Source of the DNA: Anaerolineae bacterium
GTDB lineage: Bacteria; Chloroflexota; Anaerolineae; Epilineales; JAHCIE01
Length of the DNA: 64,000 nt
Assembly: GCA_046328505.1 (NCBI GenBank)
Contig: JAXLWL010000003.1
Coordinates: 466,181 to 530,180 of the forward strand
Direction of reading: 5' to 3'
Below, in pieces: positions 3,036-58,669 of this stretch. The position numbers and the translations under genes are program-made. The notes below the pieces were generated by a model. The model was given only the letters and a program-made list of their open reading frames with translations, was not told where the DNA came from and made no database searches. How positions within the stretch are numbered: the stretch's first letter is position 1; every line of letters starts with the position of its first letter.

Positions 3036-3153
3036 GTCATTGCGAGCGTCAGCGAAGCAATCCCTCGCCCTTGTTGCGGGCGGTCTGAGCGGCTATGGCG
3101 AAGATGTCGCCCACCGGTAGATTGCTTCGGCGGCAAAGCCGCCTCGCAGTGAC
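3036..3153. repeat. family-1 palindromic repeat unit (GTCATTGCGAGCG..CGAAGCAATC..loop..GATTGCTTCG..CTCGCAATGAC), MITE/REP-like
   Basis: nested inverted repeats gtcattgcgag/ctcgca(g)tgac and cgaagcaatc/gattgcttcg; left 40 nt almost identical to copy at 45140. Confidence 0.8.
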
Positions 3154-5496: not shown

Positions 5497-5515
5497 GCGC
5501 GCTCAAGACATGGCC

Positions 5516-5852
5516 GTCATTGCGAGACCCCCACGCCGGGTGACGGCATGCGCCGGCACAAGAACACAGTTAAGCCGTCATTGCGAGCGGAGCGAAGCAA
5601 TCCCCCGTCCTTGTCAAAGGCGGTTTGCACCGCTACGGCGTTGCTGTCATCCACCGAGAGATTGCTTCGTCAGTGGGGAGCTTCGCCCCCCACACCCCCG
5701 AGATGCGCTCCTCGCAATGACAGTAGTGTGTGTTCTGAGCAGGAGGACGATAGGACGACGAAGCAATCTCGCTTTGGGTAAATGGCCCGCTCTCGCCGTG
5801 CTAGAGTATCTGCCGCAAGGGCGGGGGATTGCTTCGCTACGCGCGCAATGAC
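5516..5852. repeat. composite array of three family-1 palindromic repeat units
   Basis: repeated gtcattgcgag / cgaagcaatc / gattgcttcg / ctcgcaatgac arms; units shared with locus 52820-53131. Confidence 0.85.
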
Positions 5853-5891
5853 AGGTCGCCTGTGCCTTATGCGGTACACGCGACACTCACG

Positions 5892-15263: not shown

Positions 15264-15335
15264 GGCACGTCTCCTTAACAGAACCGCCATCGTCGGTCTC
15301 ATCATGAAACGCAACGGTGGCGTTTAGGTCATCCA

Positions 15336-17196: not shown

Positions 17197-17335
17197 AGCG
17201 GGTCTCCTTCAGAGTGATGTCACAGTGTGAGTGTGGATGAGCAGCAATGATGCAGACCCGAGCACCCCGTGTAAGGAGAATTCGGGGGACTGTTCGGGTG
17301 CTGAAGGCGAACAATCGAAGGGAAAGTCTATGCGA

Positions 17336-25100: not shown

Positions 25101-25314
25101 CCGCGCCCGCGCCGAAATAGCTTCGGCCATACACGCGCAGTGTGTAGTAGGCTGACGTGGCCTGCGCTCCCACGCCCCCTGCCAGCAGGACCCAACCTGC
25201 GGCCACCATGATGGCCAGCAGTGCAACGCTGAGCGCGACCATTCGCAGCGGTCTGCGACGGGCCGTCAGCCAACTTGCGGCGATGGGCTGGCGTGTTTGA
25301 TCATCTTGAGACAT
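19153..25314 (-). CDS. giant secreted multidomain surface protein (2053 aa): internally duplicated ~500-aa module x2, TP-linker, FN3 x2, CarbopepD_reg-like, type-I dockerin, C-terminal cohesin
   Basis: ATG 25314 with GGGAGGAGG RBS; signal/[25 protein letters not shown]; duplicated blocks ([22 protein letters not shown](Y/F)[10 protein letters not shown]); dockerin repeats [13 protein letters not shown] / [13 protein letters not shown]; cohesin-like C-terminus; ends ...[11 protein letters not shown]. Confidence 0.85.
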
Positions 25315-25460
25315 GACTTGCCTCCTCCCGCACACGACGAAGCAGTGCGCACTAACCGTTACAACGGCAGTCGGAGGCAAATGTTATGAATAATGCCCTG
25401 CAGGCCGTCTCAGCTTTTATATCTTCTTCATATTTGTTTGCATTCGCTGAAAGAAGCCTT

Positions 25461-26008: not shown

Positions 26009-28234
26009 TTACGCCAACATCGCAACCAGCGTGCGGTCAGCGCTCGCCAGCCGATCCGCCAGCACCCGCGCTAACATCCTGTGCAAGGCCGCTGCCAACT
26101 CCGGCTCCTCGACCTCCATCCGGGCCAGTTCTTCCTGACTCAAGCAATACACAGTGACCAGCTCATCGGCGACCACCGATGCGGAGCGTGGTCGCCCCAA
26201 GTAGAAGCCTAGCTCTCCCACCCATACGCCAGGCTCCATCGTCCATAGCCGCATTTGCTCGCCGGTCGGCATCTCTAGCAGGACCGTGGCCAGCCCTGCC
26301 TCGATCAGGTATAGCTCGTCCGCCACCTCTCCCTGCCGCATGATACTCTCGCCCGCCGCAAACGAGCGTCGTTCCATGTATGGCAAGAAGCGCGCCGGTT
26401 CAATCGTCGGCGGCAGGTACGCCTCCAACCGCTCGGCAAAAGACATCATCCCCGTCGCGTAAGCGCCATGCGCTGCCAATATCTGTTCTTCGCACCACTC
26501 GACCCCCCGGTCCAGGTCCGCAAACAGCTTCAGATTGGGGGTTGAATCGGTCAGGCCGTACGCCTTCAAATCAACGCGCATGTAATCGCTCACGTGCGTG
26601 AGGACGAGCGTTATGTCGCGTCGGGCAACGGTCTGCAATAGGCGCGCGAAGCTCAGCGCGGCAGACGAGTCCATCCCGACAACGCGTTGAAAGTCCAGCA
26701 CGACAAACCGCAGCCGCGGTTGGGTTGTATCCTCAGTGCGCTGGCGGATCTGTTCCAGCAGGCTGTTCGCTGTCCCGAAGAACAGGTAGTTCTGCAGCCT
26801 GAGGATGTAGGTGTCCTCGCCGTGCTCGCGCAGCGCCTGCTCCTGATCAGGTGAGCGCTGACGATTGCTGACAAACGTCTGTCCCGTCAGCGTGTTTCGG
26901 ACAACGCCGATGCGGCTGTAGCGCACCAGGAACACCCCGACCGCGATCGCCAGCCCGACAGCGACGCCCGGTAGAGGCCCCGCCGCCATGATAACAAGAA
27001 AGATGACAGCTATCAACACCCAGTCAACGCGCGGCATGTTGAACCATGTCTTGTAAAGCCATCCGATGAGGAGATCGGCGCCCACGAAGATGATGATCCC
27101 GCCAAGAACGAAGCGCGGCAGGTAGCCGAGCGGCGCAGTTCCTACGACCAAGGCAAGCCCCGCGACCGCTGCTGTTGTGAGCGGGACGAGAATACTGTGC
27201 ACCTTCATTCGTGGCGCAAGCAAGCTCAGGCCCAGCGCTGAAAAACCGGGCATTCCGCCCAGTATTCCACTCAGCAAGTTGGCGGCGCCGTTGCTGGTGA
27301 GGTCTCGGTTGAGGTCGAAATCCTGGCGGGTCGCCAACTCCAGGGCGCTGTCGTACAGCAACAGCGTCATCGTGCTCAGCAACACCAGGCTAAGCAAATT
27401 GCCGGTCTGGTGTAGTAACACAGACCAGTTGATATCAACCCACTCGGCAGGCGCCAGGGGGGGCCAACGATAGCCTTGGGCGAACGGGCCGAGGAGCCAG
27501 CCCGCGGCGCTGGCCTGGGCAGTGGAGTGTCCCGTGAGAAACAGGACCACGTAGAAGAGAGCGCCGCTTGCGAGCAGAATTACCGGCAGGATGAGGAAAT
27601 GTCTGACGCGCGAACTCAGGAAGAGCAACAGCGCCGCGAGCGCGACGCCCGGCAGCCAACGGCTCAACGTCTCCGGCGCGAACAGCCGGCCCAGGTTGGC
27701 GAGCATAGTCGGCCCGTCAACCATGACGCCTAGCCCACCCTTGGCGAGCAAACCGCCGGTTCCTGCCAGGAACCCGCCCATCACCGGGTATGGAATCAGG
27801 CGGATGAACCGCCCGAGGCGAAAGGTACCAATCGCCAGGTACGCCAGGCCGAGCAGCACGGACGCCAGGACCATCAACGCCAGGACAGTCGGATAGACCT
27901 GGCGCTCCGAGCCGGGTGACGAGAGATCATCGGCGATCGCTGCGGCCGAGACGGCCAGAATGACCGCGGTTACGTCCTGGGGGCTGGCAAGAACGAAGGG
28001 CACAGAGCCAGTCAGGGCCACCACGATGCTCAAGACAATGATGCCGGTCAGCATGCTTCCCCAACCGCCCGGCAGGTACCGCGCCAATTGGTTGTCGAAA
28101 ATCAGCGTCGCCAGCGAGATCTCGATCATCAGAAGCACTAGACCGACGATAAGGCCCGCCGTCACCCCCGGTATCAGGCGATGAAGCGCAAACTCGTGCC
28201 TAAGCATCTCAAGAACGGCGGGACGTTTCGACAT
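26009..28234 (-). CDS. SulP/SLC26 anion transporter fused to STAS and a C-terminal cyclic-nucleotide-binding domain
   Basis: SulP TM core, STAS segment FVVLDFQRVVGMDSSA, C-terminal CAP_ED-like ...ESIMRQGEVADELYLIEAGLATV...; ATG 28234. Confidence 0.85.
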   Translation of the reverse strand: MSKRPAVLEMLRHEFALHRLIPGVTAGLIVGLVLLMIEISLATLIFDNQLARYLPGGWGSMLTGIIVLSIVVALTGSVPFVLASPQDVTAVILAVSAAAIADDLSSPGSERQVYPTVLALMVLASVLLGLAYLAIGTFRLGRFIRLIPYPVMGGFLAGTGGLLAKGGLGVMVDGPTMLANLGRLFAPETLSRWLPGVALAALLLFLSSRVRHFLILPVILLASGALFYVVLFLTGHSTAQASAAGWLLGPFAQGYRWPPLAPAEWVDINWSVLLHQTGNLLSLVLLSTMTLLLYDSALELATRQDFDLNRDLTSNGAANLLSGILGGMPGFSALGLSLLAPRMKVHSILVPLTTAAVAGLALVVGTAPLGYLPRFVLGGIIIFVGADLLIGWLYKTWFNMPRVDWVLIAVIFLVIMAAGPLPGVAVGLAIAVGVFLVRYSRIGVVRNTLTGQTFVSNRQRSPDQEQALREHGEDTYILRLQNYLFFGTANSLLEQIRQRTEDTTQPRLRFVVLDFQRVVGMDSSAALSFARLLQTVARRDITLVLTHVSDYMRVDLKAYGLTDSTPNLKLFADLDRGVEWCEEQILAAHGAYATGMMSFAERLEAYLPPTIEPARFLPYMERRSFAAGESIMRQGEVADELYLIEAGLATVLLEMPTGEQMRLWTMEPGVWVGELGFYLGRPRSASVVADELVTVYCLSQEELARMEVEEPELAAALHRMLARVLADRLASADRTLVAMLA

Positions 28235-28306
28235 CACGACTCCTAACGAAGGATTGTGAAGCGACGCAACAACTCGGTCAACGCCGAACAATCTGCCGCA
28301 ACCGAC

Positions 28307-30531
28307 CTACGCCAACAAGCCAACCATCATCCGATCTGTGTTCGCCAGCCGCTCCGCCAGCACCCGCGCCAGCATCTCGTGGAAAGCCATCGCCAGATCC
28401 GCGTCCTCCGCCTGCATTCGCTCCAGCCCGGCGCGGCTCAGGCTGTACACCGTCACCGGCTCGTCCGCGACCACGGATGCCGATCGTAGCCTCCCAAGGT
28501 AGAACCCCATCTCCCCCACCCACGTACCCGGCTCCATCGTCCAGAGCCGGATCTCATTGCCATCTGGCAGTCGTAGCAGGACTGTCGCCTGCCCCGCGCC
28601 GATGAGGTAAAGCTTGTCGGCTGCCTCTCCCTGGCGCATGATGGTCTCACTCGCCGCGACCTCGCGCCGCTCCATGTAGGCCAGAAGCCGCGGCGGCGCA
28701 ATTGTCGCCGGCAAGTACTGCGCCAGCTCGTCCGCAAATGTGAATTCGCGGGCGTCGGCCTCGCCCAGTGCAGCAAGCGTTTGATTCTCGCACCACTCCA
28801 CGCCACGGTCCAGGTCCGGGAATATCCGCACATCCTCACCTTCGAGAATCTGCCCGCCAAGCTTAAGCTCCCGGAGCAGCGCATCTTCGATGTGTGTCAG
28901 CACCAAGAAGATGCCCCGCTCGCTGGTGATTTGCTGCAACCGGACAAAGCCCAGGACCGCCGATGAATCCATGCCCACGACGCGCTGGAAGTCCAGCACC
29001 ACGAACTTGACCGGCGGCTGCCCTGTGTCATCTACCCGATGGCGAATCTGTGTCACCAGGCCGTCCGCGGTGCCGAAGAAGAGATAGTTTTGCAGTCGGA
29101 GAATGTAGAGGCTGGCGCCGTGCTCGCGCAGCAGTCGCTCGTGACGGAGGAGGCGCTGGCGGTTGCTGACGAAGGACTGCCCATCCAGTGTGTTCTTGAC
29201 AACGCCCACTCGGCTGTAGCGTACGATGAACAGCACCATCGCCACGATAAGGCCGACCCCAATCCCGACCAGGAGTCCGCTCGTAATAATGACGGCGAGG
29301 ATAAGCATCAGCAGAACCCAGTCGAGGCGCGGCAGGCTGAACCAGGTCGAGTAGACCCATTCAATCAGCAAGCTGAGTCCGAGAAAGAAGGCCAGACCTG
29401 CCAGAGTGAAGCGGGGCAGGTAGCTCAAACTGTTCGCGCCGACGAGAAGAGTCGCGCCGGCCATGAACGCGACAACCAGCGGGGCCACTCGCCGCCCGAC
29501 CCGCATCCGCGGCCCAATAAGCGAGATGCTGAGCGATGTGTAGCCTGGCGCCCCGCCCAGAAGGCCACTGAGAAGGTTGGCCCAGCCATGCGCACGCAAG
29601 TCCTGATCCAGGCTCGTATCGCGATGCAGCGCCAGCTCAAGCCCTGTCTCGTTTAGGAGCAAGGATATTGTGCCGACGAGGAGCAAACTCAGCATCAGTC
29701 CCATTTCCTGGCCCAACACCGCCCAATTGATTTCGGGAATTTGTGATGGGGCGAGGGGCGGCCAGCGATACCCTTGAGAGAAAGGTCCCAGGAGCCAATC
29801 GTGCGCGCTGGCCTGGGCGAGCGAAGTCCCAGTCAGCCACAGAACTGCATAGAAGCCAGCAATACTCACCACCAGTGTAGCCGGCACGACCAGGAAATGT
29901 TTGTATCTGGCGGTCAACACAGCGAGAAGAACGCCGAGCGCCACCCGGGCAACCAGTGGGACAGAGTATCGGCGACGAACAGCTCAGGCAAATGTTCCGG
30001 CGTAGTCGGCACGTTGACCATGATGCCAAGCGCTTCCATCGCCACCAGCCAGCCCGTGCCTGCCAAAAACCCGCCGGCGACAGGGTACGGGATGAAGCGA
30101 ATGAGACGCCCCAGCCGAAACGTGCCCAGCCCAAGGTAGACGAGGCCCATCAGTATCGAGGACAGGATAATGTAGGCGAGAACTGTGGGGTAGACCTGGC
30201 TGAGCCGGCCTTGTGAGATGAGAGCGCTGGCTATGGATGTGGTCGCTAGAGCCAGGATGACGGAGGGGTTTTCCTGGGGCTTGGCAATTGCGAAAGGCAA
30301 CGAGCCCACAAGGGCGACGACAACGGCGAGGACGACCGTAGCCGTGAGCATGCTCGACAGCCCATTCGGCAGGTACGGCGCGAGATCGCCGGAGAATATG
30401 AGCGCCGTCAGCGAAATCACGATTGTCACGGTCATCACACTGGCGAGGAGCCCCGCGATCAGACCGGGCAGGAGGCGGTCAGGCGCTAGCTCGCGCCGAG
30501 TGCGACCGAGGATACCCGAGGATGTGGACAT
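28307..30531 (-). pseudogene. second SulP-STAS-cNMP-binding transporter paralog, split by a single -1 frameshift (or sequencing error)
   Basis: ORFs 29914-30531 and 28307-29944 overlap; by comparison with the intact paralog the junction ...HWLPG|VALGVLLAV... is broken by one missing base in the run cccggg (29943-29948). Confidence 0.75.
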
Positions 30532-31839: not shown

Positions 31840-34320
31840 TTACAGAGTGATCGGCACAGGCTGAGTTTTCCAAATACCCTCACTATACTGTTGGACGGCG
31901 CGGTCAGCGGAGAAAAATCCGGTGCGGGCTGTGTTCAGGATGGACATGCGCGTCCAGCGCTCTGTATCCTGGTAGGCCAGCGTCGCCGCCTCCACAGCCT
32001 CGACGTAGGCAGCGTAGTCGGCCATGATGAAGTACTGATCGTGACTCAGCAGCGAGTCGATCAGCGGACGGAATACCTCTCGGTCGCCTCGCGAGAAGTA
32101 GCCGCTCGCGATCATGTCCACGACCTGGCGCAGCTCCGGGTCACGCTCATAGTACATCGCCGGGCGATAGCCCTGGCGCAGCAAGTGAAACACGTCCTCT
32201 GCGCGCAGCCCAAACAGGAAGAAGTTCTCCGGCCCGACAAGATCGCGAATCTCGATGTTCGCACCGTCCAGCGTGCCGACGGTGACCGCCCCATTCAGCG
32301 CAAACTTCATGTTCCCCGTGCCAGAGGCTTCCTTGCCCGCCAGGGAGATCTGCTCGGAGATGTCGGCAGCCGGGTAGATCTGCATCGCCGTCGAGACGTT
32401 GAAGTTGGGAACGAACACCACCTTCAGCCGATCCCCCACAGCCGGGTCATTGTTGATGACCTCGGCGATGGAGTTCAGCAGCTTGATGATGAGCTTCGCC
32501 ATGCGGTAGCCGGGCGCTGCCTTGGCCCCGAACACGAAGACGCGTGGGAAGACCTCTGCCGTCGGGTTAGCCTTGATCCGATTGTAGAGAGTGATGATGT
32601 GGAACGCCTTGAGGAGCTGACGCTTGTACTCGTGGAGCCGTTTGACCATCACATCCCACACGGCGTTCGGGTCAATCTCCAGCCCCAGGCCTTCTTTGGC
32701 CTTTTCCGCCGCGTCTCGCTTGTTCGCCTGCTTGACCTCGCGCCACTCCGCGCGGAACGTCGGGTCGTCGATGAACTGCTCCAGCTCGCGCAGGCGCTCA
32801 AGGCGGCCGAGCCAGTGCTCGCCGATTCGGTCATAGATGAGCGAAGACAGGCGCGGGTTCGCCAATCGAATGAACAGCCGCGGGTCGACGCCGTTGGTCT
32901 TGTTGTTGAACTTCCACGGCCAGAGCGTGTTGAAGTCGCGCAACACCAGGTCCCTCAGCAGCCCTGACTGCAGCGCCGAGACGCCGTTGATCGAGAAGCT
33001 CCCGACGCTGGCCAGGTACGCCATCCGCACGTGGGGCGCCGCGCCCGGGGTGACGATGGACATGCGCGCCGCGGCTGCATAGTCGCCGAGGACAGCGCAC
33101 GCCTGTTCGAGGAATCGCCGATTGATCTCGCGGATGATCTCCATGTGGCGCGGGAGCAGTTGTTCCAACAGGCTCGCGGGCCACTCCTCCAGCGCCTCGG
33201 GCAACAGGGTGTGGTTGGTGTAGGCGAAGGTGCGGCTTGTGATGCTCCAGGCCGTGTCCCAGTCGACATCGTACTCGTCGACGAGCAAGCGCATCAGCTC
33301 CGGGATGGCGATGGTAGGGTGGGTGTCGTTGAGCTGAATGGCGACCTTGTCCGGGAACAGATCCCAGTTCGCGCCGTTGCGGCGCATGAAGACGCGCACG
33401 ATGTCGGCCAGCGATGCCGCCACAAAGAAGTACTGCTGCTGGAGGCGCAGCAGCTTGCCCTGGGGGGTCGTGTCGTCCGGGTAGAGTACCTTTGTGATGT
33501 TCTCCGAGTGGACCTTGCCCTCGACCGCGCGCACGAAGTCGCCGGTGTTGAACACCTGGAGGTCGAAGGACGCTGTAGCGTGGGCGCTCCACAGGCGCAG
33601 CGAGTTGACCGTGTTGTTCTTGTACCCCGGCACCATCATGTTGTACGGTATCGCCTCGACACACCACGCCGGGCGCCAGTGCACTTTGAAGTCGCCGTAG
33701 CTCCCCCACTCCTTCTCGGTGTAGCCCCCGAAGCCGATCTCCACGCGCCGCTCCGGGCGCGGGAACGACCAGGGGTCGCCGCCCGCTGTCCAATCGTCTG
33801 GCCGCTCGACCTGCCAGCCATCCACGAATGTCTGGCGAAAGATGCCGTACTCGTAGCGAATACCGTAGCCGATGGCAGGCAGACCGAGCGTCGCCATGGA
33901 CGCCAGGTAGCACGCCGCCAGCCGCCCCAGGCCGCCGTTGCCGAGGCCCGGCTCGCGCTCCTGGCCCATCACGGCGTCGAGGTCGAGGCCTAGCTCGGTC
34001 ATAGCCTGGCGCGCCACGTCCATAAGGCCGATATTGAGCAGGTTGCTGGGAAGCTGCGGGCCTAGGAGATATTCAGCCGAGAGGTAGTAGACGAATTTGC
34101 AGTCGGTCTCATCGTAAGTCTGGAACGTTTGCAGCCAGCGCTGCATCAATCGGTCGCGCACGGTGTAGGCCAGGGCCAGATAGTGATCCATCGGCGTGGC
34201 GCGGGGCATGTCCTTGCCCTGGACGTAGTAGAGATTGTCCAAAAAAGCGCGCTTGAACGCATCGGCGGTCATGCCCGTGCGGGTATGAATATAGTTTTGT
34301 TGTGTCTGGATGTCCATCAT
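31840..34320 (-). CDS. glgP: glycogen/alpha-glucan phosphorylase
   Basis: 826 aa; classic GT35 phosphorylase motifs (EPGLGNGGLGRLAACYL..., PLP-site region). Confidence 0.9.
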   Translation of the reverse strand: MMDIQTQQNYIHTRTGMTADAFKRAFLDNLYYVQGKDMPRATPMDHYLALAYTVRDRLMQRWLQTFQTYDETDCKFVYYLSAEYLLGPQLPSNLLNIGLMDVARQAMTELGLDLDAVMGQEREPGLGNGGLGRLAACYLASMATLGLPAIGYGIRYEYGIFRQTFVDGWQVERPDDWTAGGDPWSFPRPERRVEIGFGGYTEKEWGSYGDFKVHWRPAWCVEAIPYNMMVPGYKNNTVNSLRLWSAHATASFDLQVFNTGDFVRAVEGKVHSENITKVLYPDDTTPQGKLLRLQQQYFFVAASLADIVRVFMRRNGANWDLFPDKVAIQLNDTHPTIAIPELMRLLVDEYDVDWDTAWSITSRTFAYTNHTLLPEALEEWPASLLEQLLPRHMEIIREINRRFLEQACAVLGDYAAAARMSIVTPGAAPHVRMAYLASVGSFSINGVSALQSGLLRDLVLRDFNTLWPWKFNNKTNGVDPRLFIRLANPRLSSLIYDRIGEHWLGRLERLRELEQFIDDPTFRAEWREVKQANKRDAAEKAKEGLGLEIDPNAVWDVMVKRLHEYKRQLLKAFHIITLYNRIKANPTAEVFPRVFVFGAKAAPGYRMAKLIIKLLNSIAEVINNDPAVGDRLKVVFVPNFNVSTAMQIYPAADISEQISLAGKEASGTGNMKFALNGAVTVGTLDGANIEIRDLVGPENFFLFGLRAEDVFHLLRQGYRPAMYYERDPELRQVVDMIASGYFSRGDREVFRPLIDSLLSHDQYFIMADYAAYVEAVEAATLAYQDTERWTRMSILNTARTGFFSADRAVQQYSEGIWKTQPVPITL

Positions 34321-35714
34321 TACACAACCTCTGGGGCAGCTCCATGGCCGAGCAGCTCCGTCTTGTCATCGGTGTGAAGCCAGAGCCTGAGCAAGACATA
34401 GCCAACGATACCGGCCACGAGCGATGCCACGAGAATGCCAAGTTTGGCTTCGTTGATAAGGTGCTCATCAGTGAAGGCCAGCTCGGTTACGAACAGGGAC
34501 ATGGTAAAGCCAATGCCAGCCAGCCAGCTCGCGCCGTAGAGAGTGCGCCAGTTTACGCCCTCAGGCAGTGACGCCCACCCCAGGCGCACGGTCAGCCAGC
34601 TGAACAACGTGACGCCAATCTGCTTGCCGAGCACCAGGCCCAGCAGCACGCCCATACCGATAGGATTGAGAATTGCGCTCAGGCCGCCGCCCTCCAAAGG
34701 CACGCCTGCGTTGAATAAGGCAAACAGTGGAATGACAAAGTACGCATTGAACGGATGGAGCGCGTGCTCGATGACGAGGCCCGGTGGCCGCATGTCCCGC
34801 GCCGCGTCGTGCAGCTCCATGATGAGCTCCATCTGCCGGTGGTCATGAATCATGCTCTCAGTCGTCAGCTCGGCGCCTTCGAGCTCCTGGAGCTTCTGGT
34901 AGCCTAGAACCAGGAACTTCTCTGGGTCCATGCGCGCGCGCACAGGAATGGTCAGGGCGATCAGGACGCCCGCCACGGTGGCGTGCACGCCGGACAGGTA
35001 CATCTCAAGCCAGACGCCGATACCAAGGACGATGTAAAGCGCGGCGCTTCGGACACCCAGGCGGTTTGCCACGAGCATGGCTACCAGCAAAAGCCCGGCG
35101 ATTTCCAATGAGGTGAAGCTCACCGAGGGTGTGTAGAAGAGAGCGATGACCAGCACAGCGCCCAGGTCGTCGGCGATCGCCAGCGCCGTCAGGAACACCT
35201 TGAGGCCCGGAACGACTCGCGCCCCCAGTAGCGCCAGGATGCCCAACGCGAAGGCAATGTCGGTCGCCATCGGGATGCCCCACCCGGCCTGGCCCGCGCC
35301 GCCGAAGTTGAAGACTGTATAGATGAGCGCGGGGATGAGCATGCCGCCGAGCGCCGCGACGACCGGCAGAATGGCCTTTCGGGGTGACGCCAGCTCACCC
35401 ACCAAGACCTCGCGCTTGATCTCCAGACCAACGACGAGGAAGAACAGCGTCATCAAGCCATCGTTGATCAGATGATGCAGCGAAAGGGTGAGCACATGCT
35501 CGCCCACCGATAGCGAAATGTCGGTATGGAGAATCTCGACGTAAAGATAGGCCCAGGGGGAGTTAGCCCATACGAGGGCGATAATCGCGGTAACGAGGAG
35601 AATGATGGCGCCAGTCGCCTCAGAGTGGGCAAACTCGCGGAACGGCTCGGTCAAGGCAAGCGGGGTGCGCAGAATGCGGCTGATCCTGCGCTCGGCCGGG
35701 AGCTGTCTGTCCAT
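34320..35714 (-). CDS. nhaA: Na+/H+ antiporter NhaA
   Basis: NhaA motifs (GIPMATDIAFALGILALLG, LTALAIADDLGAVLVIALFYT); stop TAA overlaps the glgP ATG by 1 nt (TAATG). Confidence 0.9.
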   Translation of the reverse strand: MDRQLPAERRISRILRTPLALTEPFREFAHSEATGAIILLVTAIIALVWANSPWAYLYVEILHTDISLSVGEHVLTLSLHHLINDGLMTLFFLVVGLEIKREVLVGELASPRKAILPVVAALGGMLIPALIYTVFNFGGAGQAGWGIPMATDIAFALGILALLGARVVPGLKVFLTALAIADDLGAVLVIALFYTPSVSFTSLEIAGLLLVAMLVANRLGVRSAALYIVLGIGVWLEMYLSGVHATVAGVLIALTIPVRARMDPEKFLVLGYQKLQELEGAELTTESMIHDHRQMELIMELHDAARDMRPPGLVIEHALHPFNAYFVIPLFALFNAGVPLEGGGLSAILNPIGMGVLLGLVLGKQIGVTLFSWLTVRLGWASLPEGVNWRTLYGASWLAGIGFTMSLFVTELAFTDEHLINEAKLGILVASLVAGIVGYVLLRLWLHTDDKTELLGHGAAPEVV

Positions 35715-35920
35715 AACATCAAGTACCTTGTGAGAATGCTGCGCCTGCGCTACCGGAAGTGAAGATTATCACAGGTTGGCGCGCGGCGCAAAGCAAAAAA
35801 GAGGCCGGGGAGCCGCGCGGCTTCATCAGCCACGCGCTCCCCGGCGCTCCCGTCTCGATCCGTCTCAACCGCTAACTTCCGAACCGGTGATTCTTCTCCT
35901 GCCGCTCCGTGAGCCGCCGA

Positions 35921-37886: not shown

Positions 37887-38189
37887 CCTCTTTGGCGCGG
37901 CATTTTCTTTCCAGGGCCGAAAATCGAGTCTTTTGCTGCTGCAGCGGTTGAGTTGGATGCGAATTAGGATGCTCGCCCATATCCTAAGGCAATCTGTCAA
38001 CGTATTGTATTTAGATGGTCACGCGGGATTACCTAGGGGGTACTTTCCTGGCGTCTATCTGCGTTTCGGATTTCCCGTCCTGTGTCTCAACCCTTGTGAG
38101 GCGCACCGGCAGCAACCAGGCTCGCCCGAGCGACGCCGGAAACGCTCACCCGCTGCGCTCCCCCCCCAACACCAAGGAGGATCAAGTCA

Positions 38190-41100
38190 TGCTCAAGCGT
38201 TTGCTGGTAGCGTTGACCAGTCTGTCGCTGCTCCTTGGAGCAGCCGTCATTGTCTGGCAAGCCAATCCAGCGAGAGCCCAGGGACAGGCGCGAACGACCT
38301 ACACTGCGTTTGCCCCCTTCATTGCAAAAGCTGCCTTTCCCAACGGCTCAAGCAGTAGTATTCAGCTCGGCATCACCACCTCCGTCGCCAGCAACGGTAA
38401 CATCAACTACCGCATCAAGATCACCAACCTGGCCGACACGGCCGTCACCGTTCTCCCTCTGGAGTTCGGCTACGACGCCTCAGTTCTGAAGTTCCTATCC
38501 GCGACACATACCCCCGACAGCCCGACGCCCGGCGCCCTACGCTGGAACAACCTGGCAGCCTTCTCGGACATTGGCCCGCTGGGCCCGGCCGGGTCAGCCA
38601 CGGCGTCCAAGAACTTCGACATCACGATGGGCACCGTCATCTGTCCGCAGGGCGGGATTGTCACCGTCAACGCCCTCGTCAGCGGCGCGATTGACAGCGC
38701 CAATCAAGTCATCCCGCCGGCCCAGGTATCCAGCGGCCAGCAGGTCTGTACCCCCCTGCAGATCACGAAGTCGCTGTTCAACCTGCCCACCGGTCAGGCC
38801 CTCGTCGGCGACCTGGTCACGTTCGACATCGTCGTGACCAACCCCAGCGTCAACAGCAACGCGCCGCCGGCGCTACAGAACGTCACCGGACCGATTGTCG
38901 TCGACCGCTTCAATCCCGATGTGCTCAAGTACAAGTCGGCAAGCATCGAGATGCAGCCGGGCAGCTTCACGCCCATCTCGGCGACCACGCCGATCACCGG
39001 CACGCCGGTCGGCACCGTCACGTTCCAGGACGCCCTGGCCAACACCACCCTCACACCGGGCCAGAGCCTGCGCCTCCACATCCTGTTTGAGGTCACAGCG
39101 TGCGGCTCGGCGGCCGGCACGACCAACGTCGGTGAGGTGGCGGCCATCGGCGCGACCGGCCTACCCGTTCGGGTCGGCTCCTCCAGCGCCAACCTGAACA
39201 TCATCTGCCCCAACATCCAGGTGACCAAGCGCATCCAGGCGCCGGCTCAGGGTGTCGTCGCCATCAACGAGAACATCACCTTTACCATCGCCGTTCAGGC
39301 CGTTGGCAACCAGGCCATTAACGTCGTTCCGATGGAGGATATCTTCGACCCCAACATCCTCCAGTACGTGAGCGCCGACCCCGCGCCCAGCGGCGTGCCG
39401 ATCGGCGGCAACGTCACCTGGGATGACCTGATCAAGGCCCGCGGTGGGGCGCTCCAGCCGGGTGAGACGTACACCGTCACCCTGCTGATGAAGGCCGTCG
39501 GCTGCCCGGTCGGCGGGCAAACGGCCAACCGCGCCCGCGTCGGCAACGGCATCGCCTCCGGCGGCGGCTACGGCTTCGGCGTCCCGCAGTCCTCGGACAC
39601 CGTGCCGGTCGACGTTGCCTGCCCGAAGGTGAACGTCGAGAAGCGCCTGGTCACGCCGCGCAGCGGCCTCATCCAGGAGCTTGGCTCGGACGCCACCTAC
39701 GAGGTCGTCGTCCGCAACACGGGCAACCTGCCCCTGGTCACCGTGCCGCTTACTGACACGTTCAACGCCAGCATTTTCGACCTGATCAGCACCTCCATCA
39801 CGCCGTCGACCAACAGCGGCGGGAAGCTGACCTGGAATAACCTGGCAGGCGGCTCGCCGCTCTTACCCGGCCAAAGCATCGCCATGATCATGGTGCTGCG
39901 GAATAAGGCCTGCCCGCCGGTGAACCAGATCACGTACACCAACTCGGCAGGCGTCTCGGGCGCTCTGGCGAGCTTCCGCAACGGCACTCTGCCCGTTCCG
40001 CCCAGCTTCTCCTCGGCCGACGTGGACGTAGTCTGCGCCCAGGTGAAGCTCACCAAGACGCTGGTGAGTCCGCCAGATAGAGTCGTCTCGCCGAACGTCG
40101 CCGGGCGCAGCACGCTGACGTTCCGCATCGACATCACCAACACGGGCAACATCACCGTCACCCGCCTGCCCCTGACCGACTCGTGGGACCCGGCGTATCT
40201 CGACTACAACCGCGCTGACCCAGCGCCCGACGAGATTATCTCCGGCAAGCTCACGTGGTCGAACCTGGCGGCGGCCGACCGCGGCGGGCCACTGCTGCCC
40301 GGCCAGCACCGCACGATTACGGTTCTCCTGCGGCCCATCGGCTGCCCGCCGAACCAGACCGTCTACAACGAGGCCGTCATCGACAACGCTCTCGCCATCG
40401 CGCAAGGCGCGGGTGTCCCGACGCCGCTGCCGAAGATCACGGCGTTCAGCGATGCGCGTATCGCGTGTCCGGCCGTCGCGGTTGAGAAGACCGTGGAGGT
40501 CCAGCCGAACTGCGACATCGTCGGCATCAACCAGAACGTCACCTTCGACATAATTGTTCGCAACACCGGCAACAGCACGCTGACGACGATCCCGCTGACG
40601 GACACCTACGAGTCCAACTATCTCCAGTTCCTCAGCGCGGATCCACAGCCGAACAGCAGCACCACGAGCGGAAGTGGACAAACCGCTAAGGGCTTACTAA
40701 GCTGGAACAACATAGCGGGCGCAGCGCCCAACGGCTTCGGCCGCGGCCTGCCGCCGGGCGAGAGCTTCAGCGTCAAGGTCACGTTCAAGACCCTGCGCAG
40801 CACCGGCGACATCCAGCGCTCACCGGCCCGCTACACCCTGAACTACGCCGGCGTCACGGGCGCCACCGACGAGTACGGCTTCGTCGCCAAGCCCGCCACG
40901 AGCGCACCGGCCCGCCTCCGCATCGCCCAGGCGGACCTGTACATCGAGATGACGCAGGAGACCCAGTACCCGACGGTCGATGTGAACCAGTCGGTAACGG
41001 ACACGTTCGGCATGGCGCCCTGGCCATCACAGATGAGTAACCAGGTGGTCGTGCCGGGTGAGCTGATCACCTACACCATCAAGTACGGCAACCGCGGCCC

Positions 41101-42139
41101 GTATGACGAAGCGCCCTTTGTCCGCATTCTGGACATCATCCCGGCCGGCACGCAGTATGTCGGCCATACCCAGGGCAACTGCGTCAACAGTGATATCCAG
41201 AACGGCTGCTTCATCGGGAGCCTCATCCCCGGTCAGAACGGCCAGTTCAAGATCACGATCCGCGTCCCGAACTTGAGCGAGTCCACCAACGGCGCGATCA
41301 AGCCGGGTGTGACCCTGGTCAACACCATCACCATCGACTCCGGCTTCTCGCCCAGCGGCCCGCAGTGCGGCGTCCCCGACTACTTCAACAGCGACAACGT
41401 CGCGAAGTGGTCGACGGACATCCTGAGCGACTTCGGCGACTCGCCGGTTGTCGCCCAGCCGCCGCTGCCCGGCTACGGCGCGGGTTCCACCGACACCTAC
41501 AACGGCAACTACATCCACGAGTGGCTCGGCCGCGCCGTCAGCGGCGAGCGCTCCGTCTCCGACGCCAAGGACCCCGATGGTGAGCCGAACGTCACCTCGA
41601 CGACCTTCAACGGCGACCACCAGGACGACGGCGTCTACTTCCGCAACCCGTGGGACACGAGCCTGCCGCAGACGCAGCGCGTCTACCGGCCCGGCGAGCT
41701 GGCCGTGACCGCCAAGGTCATCGTCTCGGCGCGCGACCCGCAGAGCAGCCGCTACGGCGCTGACCCCAGCAAGCAGATCTACATCAGCGCCTGGGCGGAC
41801 AACAACCGCAACGGCGTCTTCGGCGATGTGGGAGACATGCTGGTCTTCCAGTGGCACGGCTACCCCGGCAGCACCGACGACTACGGCAACATCTGGCCCG
41901 GCGACAAGAACAACGTCCTGCTCAACATCCCGATCCGTGTGCCGGGTGAGACCGGCTGGATGTTGGTGCGCGTCCGCATGAGCTACGGCGCGCCGCCGAC
42001 ACCAAACGGCCCGCTGGACTACGGCGAGACCGAGGACTACCTGATCGGCACGTTCCCCGGCTACGACTGGGACAACTACCTGCCGATCCCCGGCCTGCCG
42101 CAGCCGCGGCCGGCCTACCCGGCCGGCCTGACGCAGTAA
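38190..42139 (+). CDS. large secreted surface protein with multiple DUF11 (conserved repeat, TIGR01451-type) domains
   Basis: ATG 38190 with AAGGAGGA RBS; signal peptide; repeated ...V(V/I)(R/T)NTGN..L..(P)LTD(T/S)(F/W/Y) DUF11 signatures; C-terminus ...DNYLPIPGLPQPRPAYPAGLTQ. Confidence 0.85.
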
Positions 42140-45139: not shown

Positions 45140-45258
45140 GTCATTGCGAGCGTCAGCGAAGCAATCTCTCGCCCTTGCGAAGGGCGGCCTAAGCAGCAGC
45201 ATATCTTTTGCCCACCGAGAGATTGCTTCGTCCTCCTGTCGTCGTCCTCGCAATGACC
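45140..45258. repeat. family-1 palindromic repeat unit
   Basis: gtcattgcgagcgtcagcgaagcaatc ... gattgcttcgtc ... ctcgcaatgac. Confidence 0.8.
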
Positions 45259-45277
45259 GTAATACGGATACATCACC

Positions 45278-52669: not shown

Positions 52670-52819
52670 TCGTTGTCAATAATCCGGATAAGCCGATCAT
52701 TGTAAAAATGCAGGATATTGCGCGTATATTGGCCGCTCGTGTGCAAGGCGATGAGGGCGAGTTCTACGATTGACGTCCAGAACAAACCTTTCCCGCTGGC
52801 TAGAGGACGCTACGAAACT

Positions 52820-53131
52820 GTCATTGCGAGCGGAGCGAAGCAATCTCACGCTGGGGAAAAGGTACGCTGTACCCGTGCTAGAGCGGCCTACACAAGGGCG
52901 CCAGATTGCTTCGTCGGGCTATCGCCCTCCTGCTCAGAACACACACTACTGTCATTGCGAGGAGCGCATCAGCGCGACGAAGCAATCTCTCGGTGGATGA
53001 CAGCAACGCCGTAGCGGTGCAAACCGCCTTTGACAAGGGCGGGGGATTGCTTCGCTCCGCTCGCAATGACGGCTTAACTGTGTTCTTGTGTCGGCGCATG
53101 CCGTCACCCGGCGTGGGGGTCTCGCAATGAC
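52820..53131. repeat. composite array of three family-1 palindromic repeat units (mosaic relative of 5516-5852)
   Basis: right-most unit is the reverse complement of the left-most unit at 5516; another unit is shared in the same orientation. Confidence 0.85.
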
Positions 53132-53332
53132 GCCGCATCTACCGCCACGAGCGGTATTGCCGCCGCTCGACGCCACCGATCCGAACTGGATGTCTGATAC
53201 AGCAAAGCCTGCCTCGGCAGGCTTTCCCCTCTCAGGCGCAGACTTCGAGTCTGCGTCGCTTCGCATCTGCGCAACCCGGCGATACCCTTTCGCGTCCTTC
53301 GCGTCCTTTCGTGGTCCGCCCTCCCTCGGCCC

Positions 53333-53629
53333 TCACCCTTTCTTGACCAACACCTCGTACTCCGGCTGGCCGTCGATGTAGTCGGCGACGAACCAGCATT
53401 GCGGCACGACGGATAGGTTGTTAGCGCGGGCGTACTCCAGCCCGGCGTATACAACCTGGCTCGCGATGCCGCGGCCGCGCAGGCCCACCGGCGTAAAGGT
53501 GTGGGTGAAGACGATTCTCCCCGGCGACTCCACGTAATCCAGGAGCGCCACTTTGCCCTCGACCTCGGCCTCGAAGCGGCTCTTGTCGCGGTTGTGGACA
53601 ACCTGCACCTTCAGCTCGTCATCGTCCAT
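53333..53629 (-). CDS. small GNAT-family N-acetyltransferase (Acetyltransf_CG-like, ~98 aa)
   Basis: ATG 53629; ...RFEAEVEGKVALLDY...HTFTPVGLRGRGIASQVV...VVPQCWFV typical of the minimal GNAT family. Confidence 0.75.
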   Translation of the reverse strand: MDDDELKVQVVHNRDKSRFEAEVEGKVALLDYVESPGRIVFTHTFTPVGLRGRGIASQVVYAGLEYARANNLSVVPQCWFVADYIDGQPEYEVLVKKG

Positions 53630-53630
53630 G

Positions 53631-54143
53631 TCACCTATCCCCCTGGCTGCTGGCGTCGTCATCCGTGCGGAAACCGATGCGCGCGTGGCTGCCATCGCAG
53701 AACGGCTTGTGGCCTGAGTGCCCGCAGCGGCAGAGCACCGCCTTTGTCGTCTCCCGCAGCACGTTGCCGTCCTCGTCCGTGATCTTGAGCCTGCCGCGGA
53801 CCGTCAGCGGGCCGTTGCGCACCGGTGTGATCACCGTCTCCGGGATGACCGCTTCCGATGCGGCGGGCGCCGCCTGCTGGGGCGAGATGTCCAGCCGCTC
53901 ATACGTCAGCGCGCCGCTCGGGCAGCGCCCCACGACCTCAGCAATCTGGTCGGGCGATGCCGCGTTGATGGCAACCCAGGGGAGATGGCGCGGCCTGAAA
54001 ACCCACGGCAGCCCCTGGACGCAGACGCCGCTGTGGATGCACAGCTCGGGCTTCCAGTAGACCACGATCTTATCATTGCGGTATTCACGGGCGATGGTCC
54101 GGGTGTGCCGCGCTTCCGCCCGTTTCTCCGGTGTGTCCGACAT
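53631..54143 (-). CDS. iron-sulfur protein: divergent 4Fe-4S mono-cluster (DUF1271) domain + CDGSH zinc-finger/2Fe-2S domain
   Basis: YWKPELCIHSGVC...RCPSGAL and CRCGHSGHKPFCDGSH. Confidence 0.8.
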   Translation of the reverse strand: MSDTPEKRAEARHTRTIAREYRNDKIVVYWKPELCIHSGVCVQGLPWVFRPRHLPWVAINAASPDQIAEVVGRCPSGALTYERLDISPQQAAPAASEAVIPETVITPVRNGPLTVRGRLKITDEDGNVLRETTKAVLCRCGHSGHKPFCDGSHARIGFRTDDDASSQGDR

Positions 54144-54158
54144 TCGAGTCTCCTTATG

Positions 54159-54455
54159 TCATCCGCGCGCCAGGAGTGGGCGATACTCGGGGTGGCGTTG
54201 GATGTAGCTGGTCACAAACGGGCAGTCGGAAATCACCCCCAAGCCCTCGGCGCGCGCGTACTCCAGGCCAGTCTTGGCCAACTGCCCGCCGACGCCTTGG
54301 CCTTCGAGCTCGTCCGGCACGCCGGTGTGCAGGAATATGATCGTTCCCGGCGCCATCTCGTACTCCAGGACCCCCAGGTACCCATTGACCAGCGCCTCGA
54401 ACCGCGACTCGGCCGGATTGTTTACGACCTGCACAGGCATCTTTTTGTCACTCAT
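54159..54455 (-). CDS. small GNAT-family N-acetyltransferase, paralog
   Basis: ATG 54455 with AAGGAG; same minimal-GNAT pattern (RFEALVNGYLGVLEY...HTGVPDELEGQGVGGQL...DCPFV). Confidence 0.75.
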   Translation of the reverse strand: MSDKKMPVQVVNNPAESRFEALVNGYLGVLEYEMAPGTIIFLHTGVPDELEGQGVGGQLAKTGLEYARAEGLGVISDCPFVTSYIQRHPEYRPLLARG

Positions 54456-54550
54456 CCAATACTCCTTGAGGGAACAAACACGGGGAGTGTGATGATTAAA
54501 CATCTCACTCCCCGCCAGTGCTTCCTTATACTCGGTAGCAGCCTCAGGGG

Positions 54551-55835
54551 CTACGCCGTTTTCTCCATCTCATCCCAGCCTAGCGGCTGCTCCGTCTGGG
54601 TCATCAGCAGCGGGGCGCTGGTGCGCCGAATCGTCTCCGGACTGATAACCACTCTGCGGACGTCGGCCCGGCTGGGGATCTCGAACATGACATCGAGCAG
54701 AACGCTCTCGATGATCGTGCGCAAACCGCGCGCGCCCGTCCGAATCTTCATCGCCTCCTCGGCTGCCGCTTCCAGCGCCTCGGGTGTGAAGACCAGGTCG
54801 ACCTTGTCCAGGGAGAACAGCTTCTGGAACTGCTTCACCAGGGCATTGCGCGGCTTGGTGAGGATGTCGATCATCATCGCCTTGTCGAGCGGGTCCACCG
54901 ACACTGTGACCGGCAGACGCCCGATGAACTCGGGGATCATGCCGTACTCCAGAAGATCGTCGGCGTTGATACGCTCCAACAGCTCGCCCGACTTGAGGTC
55001 CTTCGGACCCACCGCGCCCTCCGACTGGAAGCCGATGGGCGACTTGTCTACGACGCGCTTGGCGATTATCTTGTCGATCCCCTCGAACGCGCCGCCGCAG
55101 ATAAAGAGGATGTTGGATGTATCGAGCGTGGATGAAGTCCTGGGCAGTGGTGCTTGCGCCCGCCCTGGGGCGGGACACTGGCGACTGTCCCCTCGATGAT
55201 CTTGAGCAGGGCTTGCTGCACGCCCTCGCCTGAGACATCGCGGGTGATGGACGGGCTGTCGCTTCCGGTCTTGCGCGCGGTCTTGTCGGATTCGTCCACG
55301 TAGACGATGCCCTTGGATGGCCCAGGATCGTAGTCCGCCGCCTGGATCAGCCCAGGATGTTCTCCACGTCCTCGCCCACGTACCCTGGCCCTCGGTGAGA
55401 GCGGTGGCATCGGCGATGGTGAACGCCATCCAGGATGCGGGCCAGGGTCTGGGCCAGGAGAGTCTTGCCGCAGCCCGTCGGGCCGATGGCGAATGCTGCT
55501 CTTCTGCAGCTCGACGTCATCCGAACGCACACCGCCGCGGATGCGCTTGTGGTGAGCGAACGGCCACGGAGAGGACTTTCTTCGCCCCTTCCTGGCTGAT
55601 CACGTACTCGTTCAAACGGCGGTAGATCTCCTCGCGGCGTAGGTGGCTTCGGCAACTGAAGTCACGCGATGGGCGCTGGTCTCCTGGCTTCCTCCAGCAG
55701 CATCTCCTACAGGCCCACACACTCGTCACAGATATAGACGCGTTCGGACCCGCGATCAATCGGATTGACCTGGCCTTGCCTGCGCTTGCAGAAGGAGCAG
55801 ACATGCCCACCCCCACGGCGACTAGTCTTTGCCAT
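54551..55835 (-). pseudogene. clpX: clpX (ATP-dependent Clp protease ATP-binding subunit) disrupted by ~10 +/-1 frameshifts and in-frame stops in its 5' two-thirds
   Basis: expected gene length ~426 codons. ClpX segments lie in alternating frames: [135 protein letters not shown]...GGRKH, TAQDFIH, then a clean [16 protein letters not shown]... to the end. The ATG overlaps the clpP stop. Confidence 0.85.
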
Positions 55836-56499
55836 CGGCCTTCACCCCTTGCGTCTGCGCTTCGTCTTTGCGCACGTCCTCAGGACGCGCTTCTTCACTG
55901 AAGTGGATTTCAGGCCCGGGCAGGACTTCGTCAATCAGGCCGTATTCCTTGGCCGCGATGGCGTCCATGTAGCGGTCGCGGTCGAAGTCGCGGGCGATGC
56001 GCTGGATGGTCTGGCCGGTGTGGTGGGACATGATCTCGTTCATGCGGCGCTGAAGACGGACAATCTCACGCGCCATGATCTCGATGTCCTGGGTGTAGCC
56101 ACGCGCGCCGCCACCGGCGGGGTGCATGTGGATGGTGGCATTGGGAAGCGCGTAGCGGCGCCCCTTCGTGCCAGAGGCCAGCAACACCGTACCCATGCTC
56201 GCCGTCATGCCGACCGCCACGGTCGAGACGGGAGCGCGAATCGCCTGGATTGTGTCGTAGATTCCAAGACCGGAATACACGACACCACCCGGCGAGTTGA
56301 TGTACATCCGAATCTCTTTCTCCTGGTCCTGGCTGTCGAGCCAGAGGAGCTGAGCAATGATGAGATTGGCGATCTGGTCATCAATGCCCGTGCCGAGGAA
56401 GATGATCCGCTCCTTAAGCAGCAAGGAGAAGATATCCATATGGCGTTCGCCTCGGCCGGTGTTCTCGATAACCATGGGGATCAGAGCCATGGGATCCAT
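55822..56499 (-). CDS. clpP: ATP-dependent Clp protease proteolytic subunit
   Basis: 225 aa; ...YINSPGGVVYSGLGIYDTIQ...GMTASMGTVLLASG...HMHPAGG; AAAGGAA RBS. Confidence 0.9.
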   Translation of the reverse strand: MDPMALIPMVIENTGRGERHMDIFSLLLKERIIFLGTGIDDQIANLIIAQLLWLDSQDQEKEIRMYINSPGGVVYSGLGIYDTIQAIRAPVSTVAVGMTASMGTVLLASGTKGRRYALPNATIHMHPAGGGARGYTQDIEIMAREIVRLQRRMNEIMSHHTGQTIQRIARDFDRDRYMDAIAAKEYGLIDEVLPGPEIHFSEEARPEDVRKDEAQTQGVKADGKD

Positions 56500-56625: not shown

Positions 56626-57987
56626 TTACTCAGCGGCGCTGCCCGCCTCGACCGCGTTCTCCTCGGCCTCCGCCTCATCATCCGCCGCGTCCGCAACGGG
56701 CGCCTCGGCCGCGATCTCTTCCGCGTCCTCTGCTACCTCATCTTCCGGTTGGTTCAGCGTCTCCATCTGGTCTGCCGGCCAGCTCGGCCCAACCCCAGCA
56801 ACAGTCTCGACAAGCCAGTCAAGAGTGGCGCGGAGGCGAGCATTGCCGCGCTGCTCGGCGGGGAAATCCGCCGGCGGCTCGATGTTCTCGCGCTTGGCGA
56901 TATCGTCCAGAAGCAGGGTGCGCTCAATCCGCCGTTGCAGTTCTGGCTCAAGCTCCGCGCGGAGATCCTCCATCGTCCGGTTGGTCATGCGCAGGAAATT
57001 GTCCAGGGTGAAGCCCATGCGCTCCAGCGCCTTTTCCTGGCGCTCCACCTCTTCCTCGAGCTGCTGCTGTAGGAGAATGGGCGGGAAGCTGACGACGGCC
57101 TGCGCCAGCAGGGCATCGAGAACGTCGTTCTCGACCTTCTCGCGCGCCTCGCGCGACGCCTGGAACTCCAGGTTCTGGCGGATGCGCATCTCCAATTCGT
57201 CGAGCGTCTGGAACTCCTCGCTGACCCCCTGGGCAAAGGCGTCGTCCAACTCCGGCAGGTTCTGCTCCTTGACGCCATGTAGCGTCACCTTGAACTCCGC
57301 CGTCTTCTCGCGCAGCGCTTCGCGCTCGAAGTCTTCCGGGAACGTGAGGCTGAACTCGCGCGTCTCCCCGTCGGACATGCCAATCAGCTCGTCCATGAAA
57401 CCGGGCGGGAACTCGCGGAAGGATTCCTCCTTGAGAACGAACTCGTCCCCGTAGCTCTCGATGATGCGGTCCTCGCCGGTCTCGCCGACGACGTCCGCCG
57501 TCACCATGTCTTCGAGCTGAGCGGGGCGCTCGACCGGCGTCCAGGTCGCCTGCTGCTGCTGGAGGCGCTCGATCTGGTCTTCTACGTCTTCATCGCTCAC
57601 TTCCGGCAAGGTCGCTTCGACCTTGACCGAGTTATAATCGCCGGGATCGACTGTAGGAGCCATGGGGACAAGAAGCTGGAACGTGAGCGGCTCATGTGAG
57701 AGCACCTTGACTTCGCCGGGAGCGAAAGGCTCCAGCTTCTGCTGCTCGACCGCTTCCTTGTAAATCTGCGGCCCCATGTCGTCGATGGCCGCCTCGAGGA
57801 CCTGTTCCTCACCGAACACGCGGACGACGTGGCTGTAGGGAGCTTTGCCCGGGCGGAAGCCGGGAATCCGGTAACGCTGGGAAATGCGGCGCGCGGCCTG
57901 CTGCTTGGCGCGTTCTACCCGCTCCGGCTCGACTTCAACGACCAGAACGGTTTGGTGATTTTCGACACCTTGCTCGGTAATATTCAA
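56626..57987 (-). CDS. tig: trigger factor
   Basis: TTG start with GGGAGGA RBS; ...RIPGFRPGKAP... N-domain, PPIase and C-terminal acidic tail. Confidence 0.9.
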   Translation of the reverse strand: MNITEQGVENHQTVLVVEVEPERVERAKQQAARRISQRYRIPGFRPGKAPYSHVVRVFGEEQVLEAAIDDMGPQIYKEAVEQQKLEPFAPGEVKVLSHEPLTFQLLVPMAPTVDPGDYNSVKVEATLPEVSDEDVEDQIERLQQQQATWTPVERPAQLEDMVTADVVGETGEDRIIESYGDEFVLKEESFREFPPGFMDELIGMSDGETREFSLTFPEDFEREALREKTAEFKVTLHGVKEQNLPELDDAFAQGVSEEFQTLDELEMRIRQNLEFQASREAREKVENDVLDALLAQAVVSFPPILLQQQLEEEVERQEKALERMGFTLDNFLRMTNRTMEDLRAELEPELQRRIERTLLLDDIAKRENIEPPADFPAEQRGNARLRATLDWLVETVAGVGPSWPADQMETLNQPEDEVAEDAEEIAAEAPVADAADDEAEAEENAVEAGSAAE

Positions 57988-58181
57988 CGCGGAGTCCTCC
58001 CAATAATACGGTAAGGATAGTATAGCATATCAAGGCTAAAAGGGGAAAGATGGTTCAGGGGTCTTACACCGACCGCGCCATAACTTACCCGTCAGCTTGC
58101 CAGGCGCGTTCGGGCGTATATAATAGCTTCAGTCCTGTTAGCCTCTACATCGACCTTGAGTTGTCCAGGAGCCACATTACC

Positions 58182-58400
58182 ATGACAGGCTTGTTAGAGA
58201 AAGCTTTTGCAGAGGCTGCCAAGCTGAGCGAGCCGGAGCAAGACTCTCTAGCGCAGTGGATATTGGAGGAGCTTCATTCAGAGCAAAGATGGGACACCGC
58301 TTTCGCTCAATCTTCTGATATCCTGCACCAGTTGGCCGAGGAGGCGCTGGCTGAGTATCGCGCCGGTAAGACCGAACCTCTCGACCCAGAGACACTGTGA
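58182..58400 (+). CDS. putative addiction-module antitoxin (CHP02574-like)
   Basis: 72 aa; LSEPEQDSLAQWILEEL...LAEYRAGKTEPLDPETL; AGGAG RBS. Confidence 0.55.
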   Translation: MTGLLEKAFAEAAKLSEPEQDSLAQWILEELHSEQRWDTAFAQSSDILHQLAEEALAEYRAGKTEPLDPETL

Positions 58401-58669
58401 GGTCGCGCACCACGGAGAGCTTCCGCAAGCTATTTCGGGCGCTTCCGGCAGAGGTGCGAGAGCAAGGACGAGAGGCATACCGTCTCTTCGCGCAGAATCC
58501 GTATCACCCCAGTCTGAGATTCAAGCAAATCGAGGGCGACATCTACTCAGCCAGAGTCACGCTTGATTATCGAGCCGTCGGTGCTAGGAGCGGCGACGAA
58601 ATCATCCGGTTCTGGGTTGGCTCGCACGCTGAGTATGACAAGCTCGTCAGGCAGTTGCGCAGAAAGTGA
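58397..58669 (+). CDS. RelE/ParE-family toxin
   Basis: GTG start overlapping the antitoxin stop (GTGA); ...YRAVGARSGDEIIRFWVGSHAEYDKL resembles the ParE/RelE fold. Confidence 0.6.
   Translation: MRSRTTESFRKLFRALPAEVREQGREAYRLFAQNPYHPSLRFKQIEGDIYSARVTLDYRAVGARSGDEIIRFWVGSHAEYDKLVRQLRRK

Follow-up and report, generated by a model that had tools for sequence, protein, structure and literature searches.

The window, as we call the whole 64-kb stretch of DNA analysed here, carries on its minus strand the cluster tig, clpP and clpX. Trigger factor and the protease ClpP are encoded by uninterrupted genes. The sequence of clpX, the gene for the protein partner of ClpP, is garbled over one short stretch of its 5′ part and is clean from there to the stop codon. 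The features of this cluster are as follows.

56626–57987, minus strand: tig (trigger factor), intact, first in the cluster (TIGR00115, 307 bits).
55822–56499, minus strand: clpP, intact (Pfam CLP_protease, 238 bits), with a 14-nt overlap with the start of clpX.
54551–55835, minus strand: clpX locus, 1285 nt compared with 1296 nt in relatives, with no single translatable open reading frame (ORF).
55128–55781, minus strand: garbled patch in clpX, 654 nt with 21 lesion clusters in three- and four-way MAFFT alignments.
55707–55709, minus strand: in-frame TAG stop in clpX, arising from a 3-nt deletion (relatives CTGTGTAAGG, window CTGTAGG).
54551–55127, minus strand: intact 3′ part of clpX, covering the end of the large AAA+ domain and the small domain (Pfam AAA_2 and ClpB_D2-small).

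Scanning one genome per species with the trigger factor of the window yielded two uncultured Anaerolineae for comparison, L001 (JAXLWK010000005; trigger factor 89% identical to that of the window) and L002 (JBDHWG010000001; 82% identical). A third close relative with an intact clpX, L085 (JBDHWS010000009), came from the protein database. All three have the order tig–clpP–clpX, the 14-nt overlap between clpP and clpX and an uninterrupted ClpX of 431 amino acids, and synteny of the window with its relatives spans about 43.4 kb to 64 kb. In the window, as in these genomes, clpX lies directly downstream of clpP, and both termini of the locus align exactly with the intact orthologues. Further database ClpX proteins at 86–98% identity (P0122–P0125) are full-length.

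ClpX segments from CSFC to PIGF follow one another in the proper order across three frames, and the zinc-ribbon cysteines, the Walker motifs, the pore loop, the RKH loop and the IGF loop can all be recognized; the Walker B region reads VDESDK where the orthologues have VDEIDK. The frame-corrected translation scores 560.4 bits against TIGR00382 clpX (cutoff 370.75; L001 orthologue, 625) and 569.1 bits against PRK05342 (cutoff 359; L001 orthologue, 633), so that it exceeds both equivalog cutoffs. Gene order, the clpP overlap, length and end points are those of the intact orthologues. The locus departs from them in the absence of a continuous ORF, in 12 frame-changing and three 3-nt indels, in one TAG codon and in 35 altered residues among the 242 N-terminal ones.

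Six-frame reading of 54500–55900 gives one continuous frame only from LDTSNILF to the stop codon; the ClpX segments before it, PPQGGRKH and QDFIH among them, are scattered through the three frames. The longest in-frame piece comprises the last ~190 codons, and the region holds no uninterrupted ORF of ~420–430 codons; a 42-amino-acid ORF at 55707–55835 is the 5′ fragment of clpX that ends at the TAG. An earlier note, made from the letters alone, had described a frame broken repeatedly, two in-frame stops, and an intact tig, clpP and last ~580 nt of clpX. Our alignments bear out the core of this: the many breaks lie between about 55128 and 55781, an in-frame TAG follows from its 3-nt deletion, and the last ~577 nt and both upstream genes read through.

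Nucleotide alignment with L001 and L002 places 15 indel events of 1–4 nt in the window clpX, not the solely single-base frameshifts described before. Nine are deletions (20 nt) and six are insertions (9 nt), for a net change of −11 nt; 12 alter the frame and the other three are 3-nt events. Under blastn gap scoring, the same indels count as about 20 events. All fall within 55764–55128 and none within the remaining 577 nt; for 15 indels placed at random in 1296 nt, the probability that every one lies among the first 675 is 6e-5. Abnormal changes begin at 55781 (GA to AG) and end with an extra C inserted at 55128. Between these sharp edges lie all 21 lesion clusters, compared with zero in the clpX 3′ part, clpP and tig.

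When lesions are listed as columns at which L001, L002 and L085 agree and the window differs, the patch contains 15 indel events and 42 substitution-type columns. Its 21 clusters take up 69 columns of the alignment over 654 nt, or about 10%. This is an indel-rich mixture, with a ratio of indel events to substitutions of roughly 1:1.5 to 1:2.5. Some lesions change homopolymer length (C5 to C3, C3 to C2 and T3 to T2), others are losses of 2–4 nt with adjoining miscalls, and in some complex clusters a deletion and an insertion stand a few bases apart, as in the change from GAGATCGAC to GAATCCGAC. The patch is no homopolymer region, one of the settings proposed earlier, as many events are 2–4 nt long or complex. 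The supposed compensating pair in GGRKH|TAQDFIH|LDTSN proves to be two successive +1 insertions, at 55144 and 55128.

Changes in the patch fall regardless of codon position. At sites where the three relatives agree, the window differs at 31 of 431 first and second codon positions in the patch, compared with 1 of 365 in the 3′ part (Fisher p = 5.8e-8 for the excess in the patch), whereas third positions show no difference (18 of 147 compared with 18 of 132). Within the lesion clusters, the 31 changes at positions 1 and 2 are accompanied by about 11 at position 3. The lesions are therefore blind to codon position and strike residues on which all three relatives are unanimous, and the earlier claim that substitutions had not accumulated is contradicted by those 31 changes. 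After frame correction, 35 of 242 residues (amino acids 1–242) deviate from the unanimous relatives, compared with 0 of 189 in amino acids 243–431; the relatives themselves vary at one residue in amino acids 1–242. Perfect amino-acid conservation, as the gene had been credited with, is thus not what the patch encodes. Among the altered segments are YVIGQER (YVISQEG in the window), the strand that precedes Walker A (KSNILLIGP to KSSI.AIGP) and DEIDK, which has become DESDK by a change in the residue that follows the acidic pair of Walker B.

In the last 577 nt of clpX, the changes specific to the window number 18 and are synonymous; non-synonymous changes and indels are absent. Every difference downstream of 55128 is an isolated single substitution, and the sole one that is not at a third position is a synonymous CTG to TTG. 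This pattern indicates that the 3′ part has remained under strong purifying selection along the lineage of the window. At third positions, the patch has diverged no further than the sequence downstream, and there is thus no sign of a long neutral period.

Outside the Clp cluster, one further gene is interrupted.

28307–30531, minus strand: SulP/STAS/cNMP-binding permease, split into ORFs of 205 and 545 amino acids by a 1-nt deletion in a G-run.

The split lies at about 29943–29945, where one G has been lost from a GGGG run and the DNA reads cccgggtgg. Positions 6–142 of the Pfam Sulfate_transp profile match one ORF and positions 172–376 match the next, and the sequence across the junction, WLPG|VALG, agrees with that of the intact tandem paralogue at 26009–28306. 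The split may stem from a homopolymer error left over from sequencing or from a genuine slippage mutation in a gene copy that is redundant. This break near 29944 corrects the earlier statement that the remainder of the window is clean. Long intact ORFs otherwise fill the 64 kb densely; about 45 further genes are unbroken, one of them with an ORF of 2077 amino acids. A lone homopolymer-length error is a typical residue of long-read-based assembly, and a G-run error in the SulP gene would fit an assembly of that kind that was imperfectly polished.

Independent sequences confirm the organism and stop short of the patch. Two short contigs, L084 (window 34211–35789) and L086 (window 53103–54614), match the window at 100% identity and come from the public runs SRR26348420 and SRR26348419, so that reads of the organism are openly available; the presence of such DNA in two sequencing runs means that the organism is real. 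The literature yielded no paper that names the run accession. Both contigs end before the patch, L086 at 54614. Exact-product look-ups in independent assemblies matched only NhaA and the shorter-start (98-amino-acid) acetyltransferase product, on these two short Logan contigs. They returned no match for ClpP (with two start codons), trigger factor, glycogen phosphorylase, the longest-start acetyltransferase ORF of 114 amino acids or the N-terminal SulP fragment. The exact products of the broken clpX ORFs (42, 154 and 292 amino acids) are also unrecorded in these assemblies, which is weak evidence. Protein-search matches included no ClpX of the window’s population, intact or partial, and the best were 98%-identical orthologues from other genomes; the short-query protein search favours fragments and missed known close matches, and the absence of a ClpX fragment is weak evidence as well. 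In metagenome contigs, the best ClpX identity was 72% among the matches listed.

Lesions gathered in one patch with sharp edges, intact orthologues in the relatives and no relaxed constraint downstream are what we observe. The conjunction of a sharply bounded 654-nt patch with a synonymous-only 3′ part rules out gradual decay and favours an artefact, and we consider it very probable that 55128–55781 is a local assembly or consensus artefact. We infer that the lesions are absent from the DNA of the organism and that a technical step lies behind them. The earlier note had excluded ancient decay, a conclusion upheld by the confinement of the lesions and the synonymous-only 3′ part, and had left a choice between artefact and recent inactivation. 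The lesion pattern favours the first member of this pair, although the premise from which the choice was drawn, a lack of substitutions, was wrong. Nothing supports preferring a reading with real lesions over a technical one, and, judged from the sequence, the patch would not be a new biological feature.

If so, the underlying locus would be an ordinary functional-type clpX in a conserved tig–clpP–clpX operon of an uncultured Anaerolineae. A 654-nt stretch of it would have been deposited at roughly raw-read accuracy, with the rest of the contig at consensus accuracy. Candidate causes are one or a few error-prone long reads that span a gap or graph tangle, a lack of polishing where short reads could not be uniquely placed, or a patch from a single read of low quality.

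Noisy long reads show errors of this kind, rich in indels, often complex or paired within a few nucleotides, and with changes in homopolymer length. Deletion bias (here 20 nt lost and 9 gained) is known in real bacterial pseudogenes too and counts against an artefact. The lesions resemble the residual errors of long-read or hybrid assemblies in being indel-rich, codon-blind and confined to one stretch, and the separate, apparent single-base homopolymer error elsewhere in the contig fits this likeness. Such residual errors are typically isolated changes in homopolymer length, whereas the patch reaches 10% error, which suggests that there was almost no consensus depth at that spot. Residual indel errors that survive polishing are described in the work on Polypolish (PMC8812927), proovframe (10.1101/2021.08.23.457338) and ONT R10.4 (PMC9262707). 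The mutation spectrum itself is weak evidence, because natural ratios of indels to substitutions in the literature overlap the one observed here; those cited in PMC3268670 include SNP/indel ratios of 1.8–12.4 for bacterial strain pairs of very low nucleotide divergence and of about 3 in endosymbiont intergenic DNA.

Conservation among the relatives may explain in part why an artefact would arise at this spot. Within the 21-kb locus, no part is richer in 31-mers common to the three relatives than the counterpart of the patch: coverage by such 31-mers is 45% in the clpX 5′ part, 40% in clpP, 15% in the clpX 3′ part and 12% in tig. The short-read-type contig L086 stops at 54614 inside a 35-nt block (54585–54619) that has 31-mers in common with a relative. 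On this circumstantial evidence, the shared stretch is where short-read graphs and polishing would fail if related species co-occur in the sample. According to the Polypolish study (PMC8812927), polishing with short reads often leaves errors in place in regions where the alignment of those reads is unreliable. Because clpP is nearly as rich in shared 31-mers and is nonetheless clean, ambiguity between species can be no more than part of the reason for the position of the patch. Local composition was rejected as a cause, as the GC content of the patch (0.60–0.67) is like that of the flanks, and a repeat or second clpX in the window was rejected as a source of mis-assembly, as none was found.

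Genuine and very recent inactivation, in which a single clustered event corrupted 654 nt of clpX in one step, is an unlikely alternative to the artefact. The routes would be a recombination or gene-conversion tract of ~650 nt from a decayed clpX, either a paralogue or that of another strain, or a one-off, unusually error-prone repair synthesis. Sharp edges and a tract of a few hundred nucleotides would suit import by recombination, and the deletion bias is compatible with natural decay. However, a donor with 21 lesions should also have brought synonymous differences, and third positions are no more divergent in the patch (18/147) than downstream (18/132); moreover, the window contains no second clpX copy or clpX repeat. 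As for repair synthesis, we know of no bacterial repair process with about 10% errors over 650 nt. That the organism is real, as the identical DNA in two sequencing runs attests, is in keeping with true lesions, and the SulP frameshift, too, could have arisen by genuine slippage. Against these stand the intact clpX of all relatives, with its very strong constraint (1 variable residue in 242), and, more weakly, the lack of records of the broken ORFs in independent assemblies. Were the lesions real, a protease partner under strong conservation would have been inactivated by an unusual cluster of changes, and the population would live with ClpP served only by other unfoldases; within the 64-kb window, we found no other Clp/AAA+ unfoldase gene.

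A subtype of artefact, which we regard as very unlikely, would place the damage in the polishing step and not in the raw read: reads of co-occurring related species would cross-map onto the most conserved stretch of clpX and spoil the consensus during polishing. The coincidence of the patch with the stretch richest in 31-mers common to the relatives speaks for this, as does the break of the independent contig L086 inside a shared block, and the first event (CAATCCG, compared with CAAC-CG or CAAT-CG in the relatives) looks like two merged alleles. Most lesions, however, match no allele of the known relatives, and the patch retains window-specific synonymous alleles at about the rate of the clean 3′ part. 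In addition, clpP is similarly conserved yet clean.

Even less credible, and rejected, is slow neutral decay into an ordinary pseudogene once function had been lost. The window clpX does have in common with pseudogenes of this kind its many frameshifts, an early stop codon and a net bias towards deletions. Relaxed constraint should extend along the whole gene, which should drift throughout, yet the last 577 nt are without an indel or a non-synonymous change. The lesions of the window are instead confined to 654 nt, at a density of about 10% compared with 0 outside, the remaining 44% of the gene is synonymous-only and the relatives are intact.

Programmed frameshifting, which in dnaX and prfB likewise makes a frame change necessary for reading a conserved protein, was rejected outright, as it uses a single conserved recoding site, whereas the window has 12 shifts that differ in sign and size and have no slippery motif in common, a TAG and missing codons, and the orthologues are continuous ORFs.

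If the patch is an artefact, as we favour, automated annotation of the contig would report clpX as a pseudogene or in pieces, and in a metabolic or proteostasis reconstruction the organism would be wrongly scored as lacking ClpXP. Both the clpX patch and the single-base change in the SulP gene deserve flagging or re-polishing. Elsewhere in the databases, ClpX fragments of 150–325 amino acids occur on very long contigs of 128 kb to 1.25 Mb (P0014, P0073, P0011, P0288 and P0316), and truncated clpX gene calls are thus present in other public assemblies too.

Several other features of the window are recorded here in their own right. Two genes encode large surface-type proteins with intact ORFs: one of 2077 amino acids with cohesin and CarboxypepD_reg domains (19153–25383, minus strand) and one of 1375 amino acids with DUF11, DUF7507 and GEVED domains (38015–42139, plus strand). 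Adjacent paralogues without a Pfam match, at 13278–15323 and 15403–17208 (minus strand; 682 and 602 codons), have common 300-nt blocks that are 93–96% identical, and both ORFs are intact despite these repeats. Just upstream of tig, at 58050–58669 on the plus strand, an ORF of 116 amino acids without a Pfam match overlaps a 90-amino-acid ParE-like toxin ORF, and this pair of genes is probably a toxin–antitoxin module. Intergenic MITE/REP-like repeats built around GTCATTGCGAGCG...AGCGAAGCAATC occur at 3036–3132, 5515–5864, 45140–45261 and 52794–53132. The copies at 5515–5671 and 52976–53132 are each 157 nt long and 99% complementary, and the independent contig L086 breaks at one copy of this repeat.
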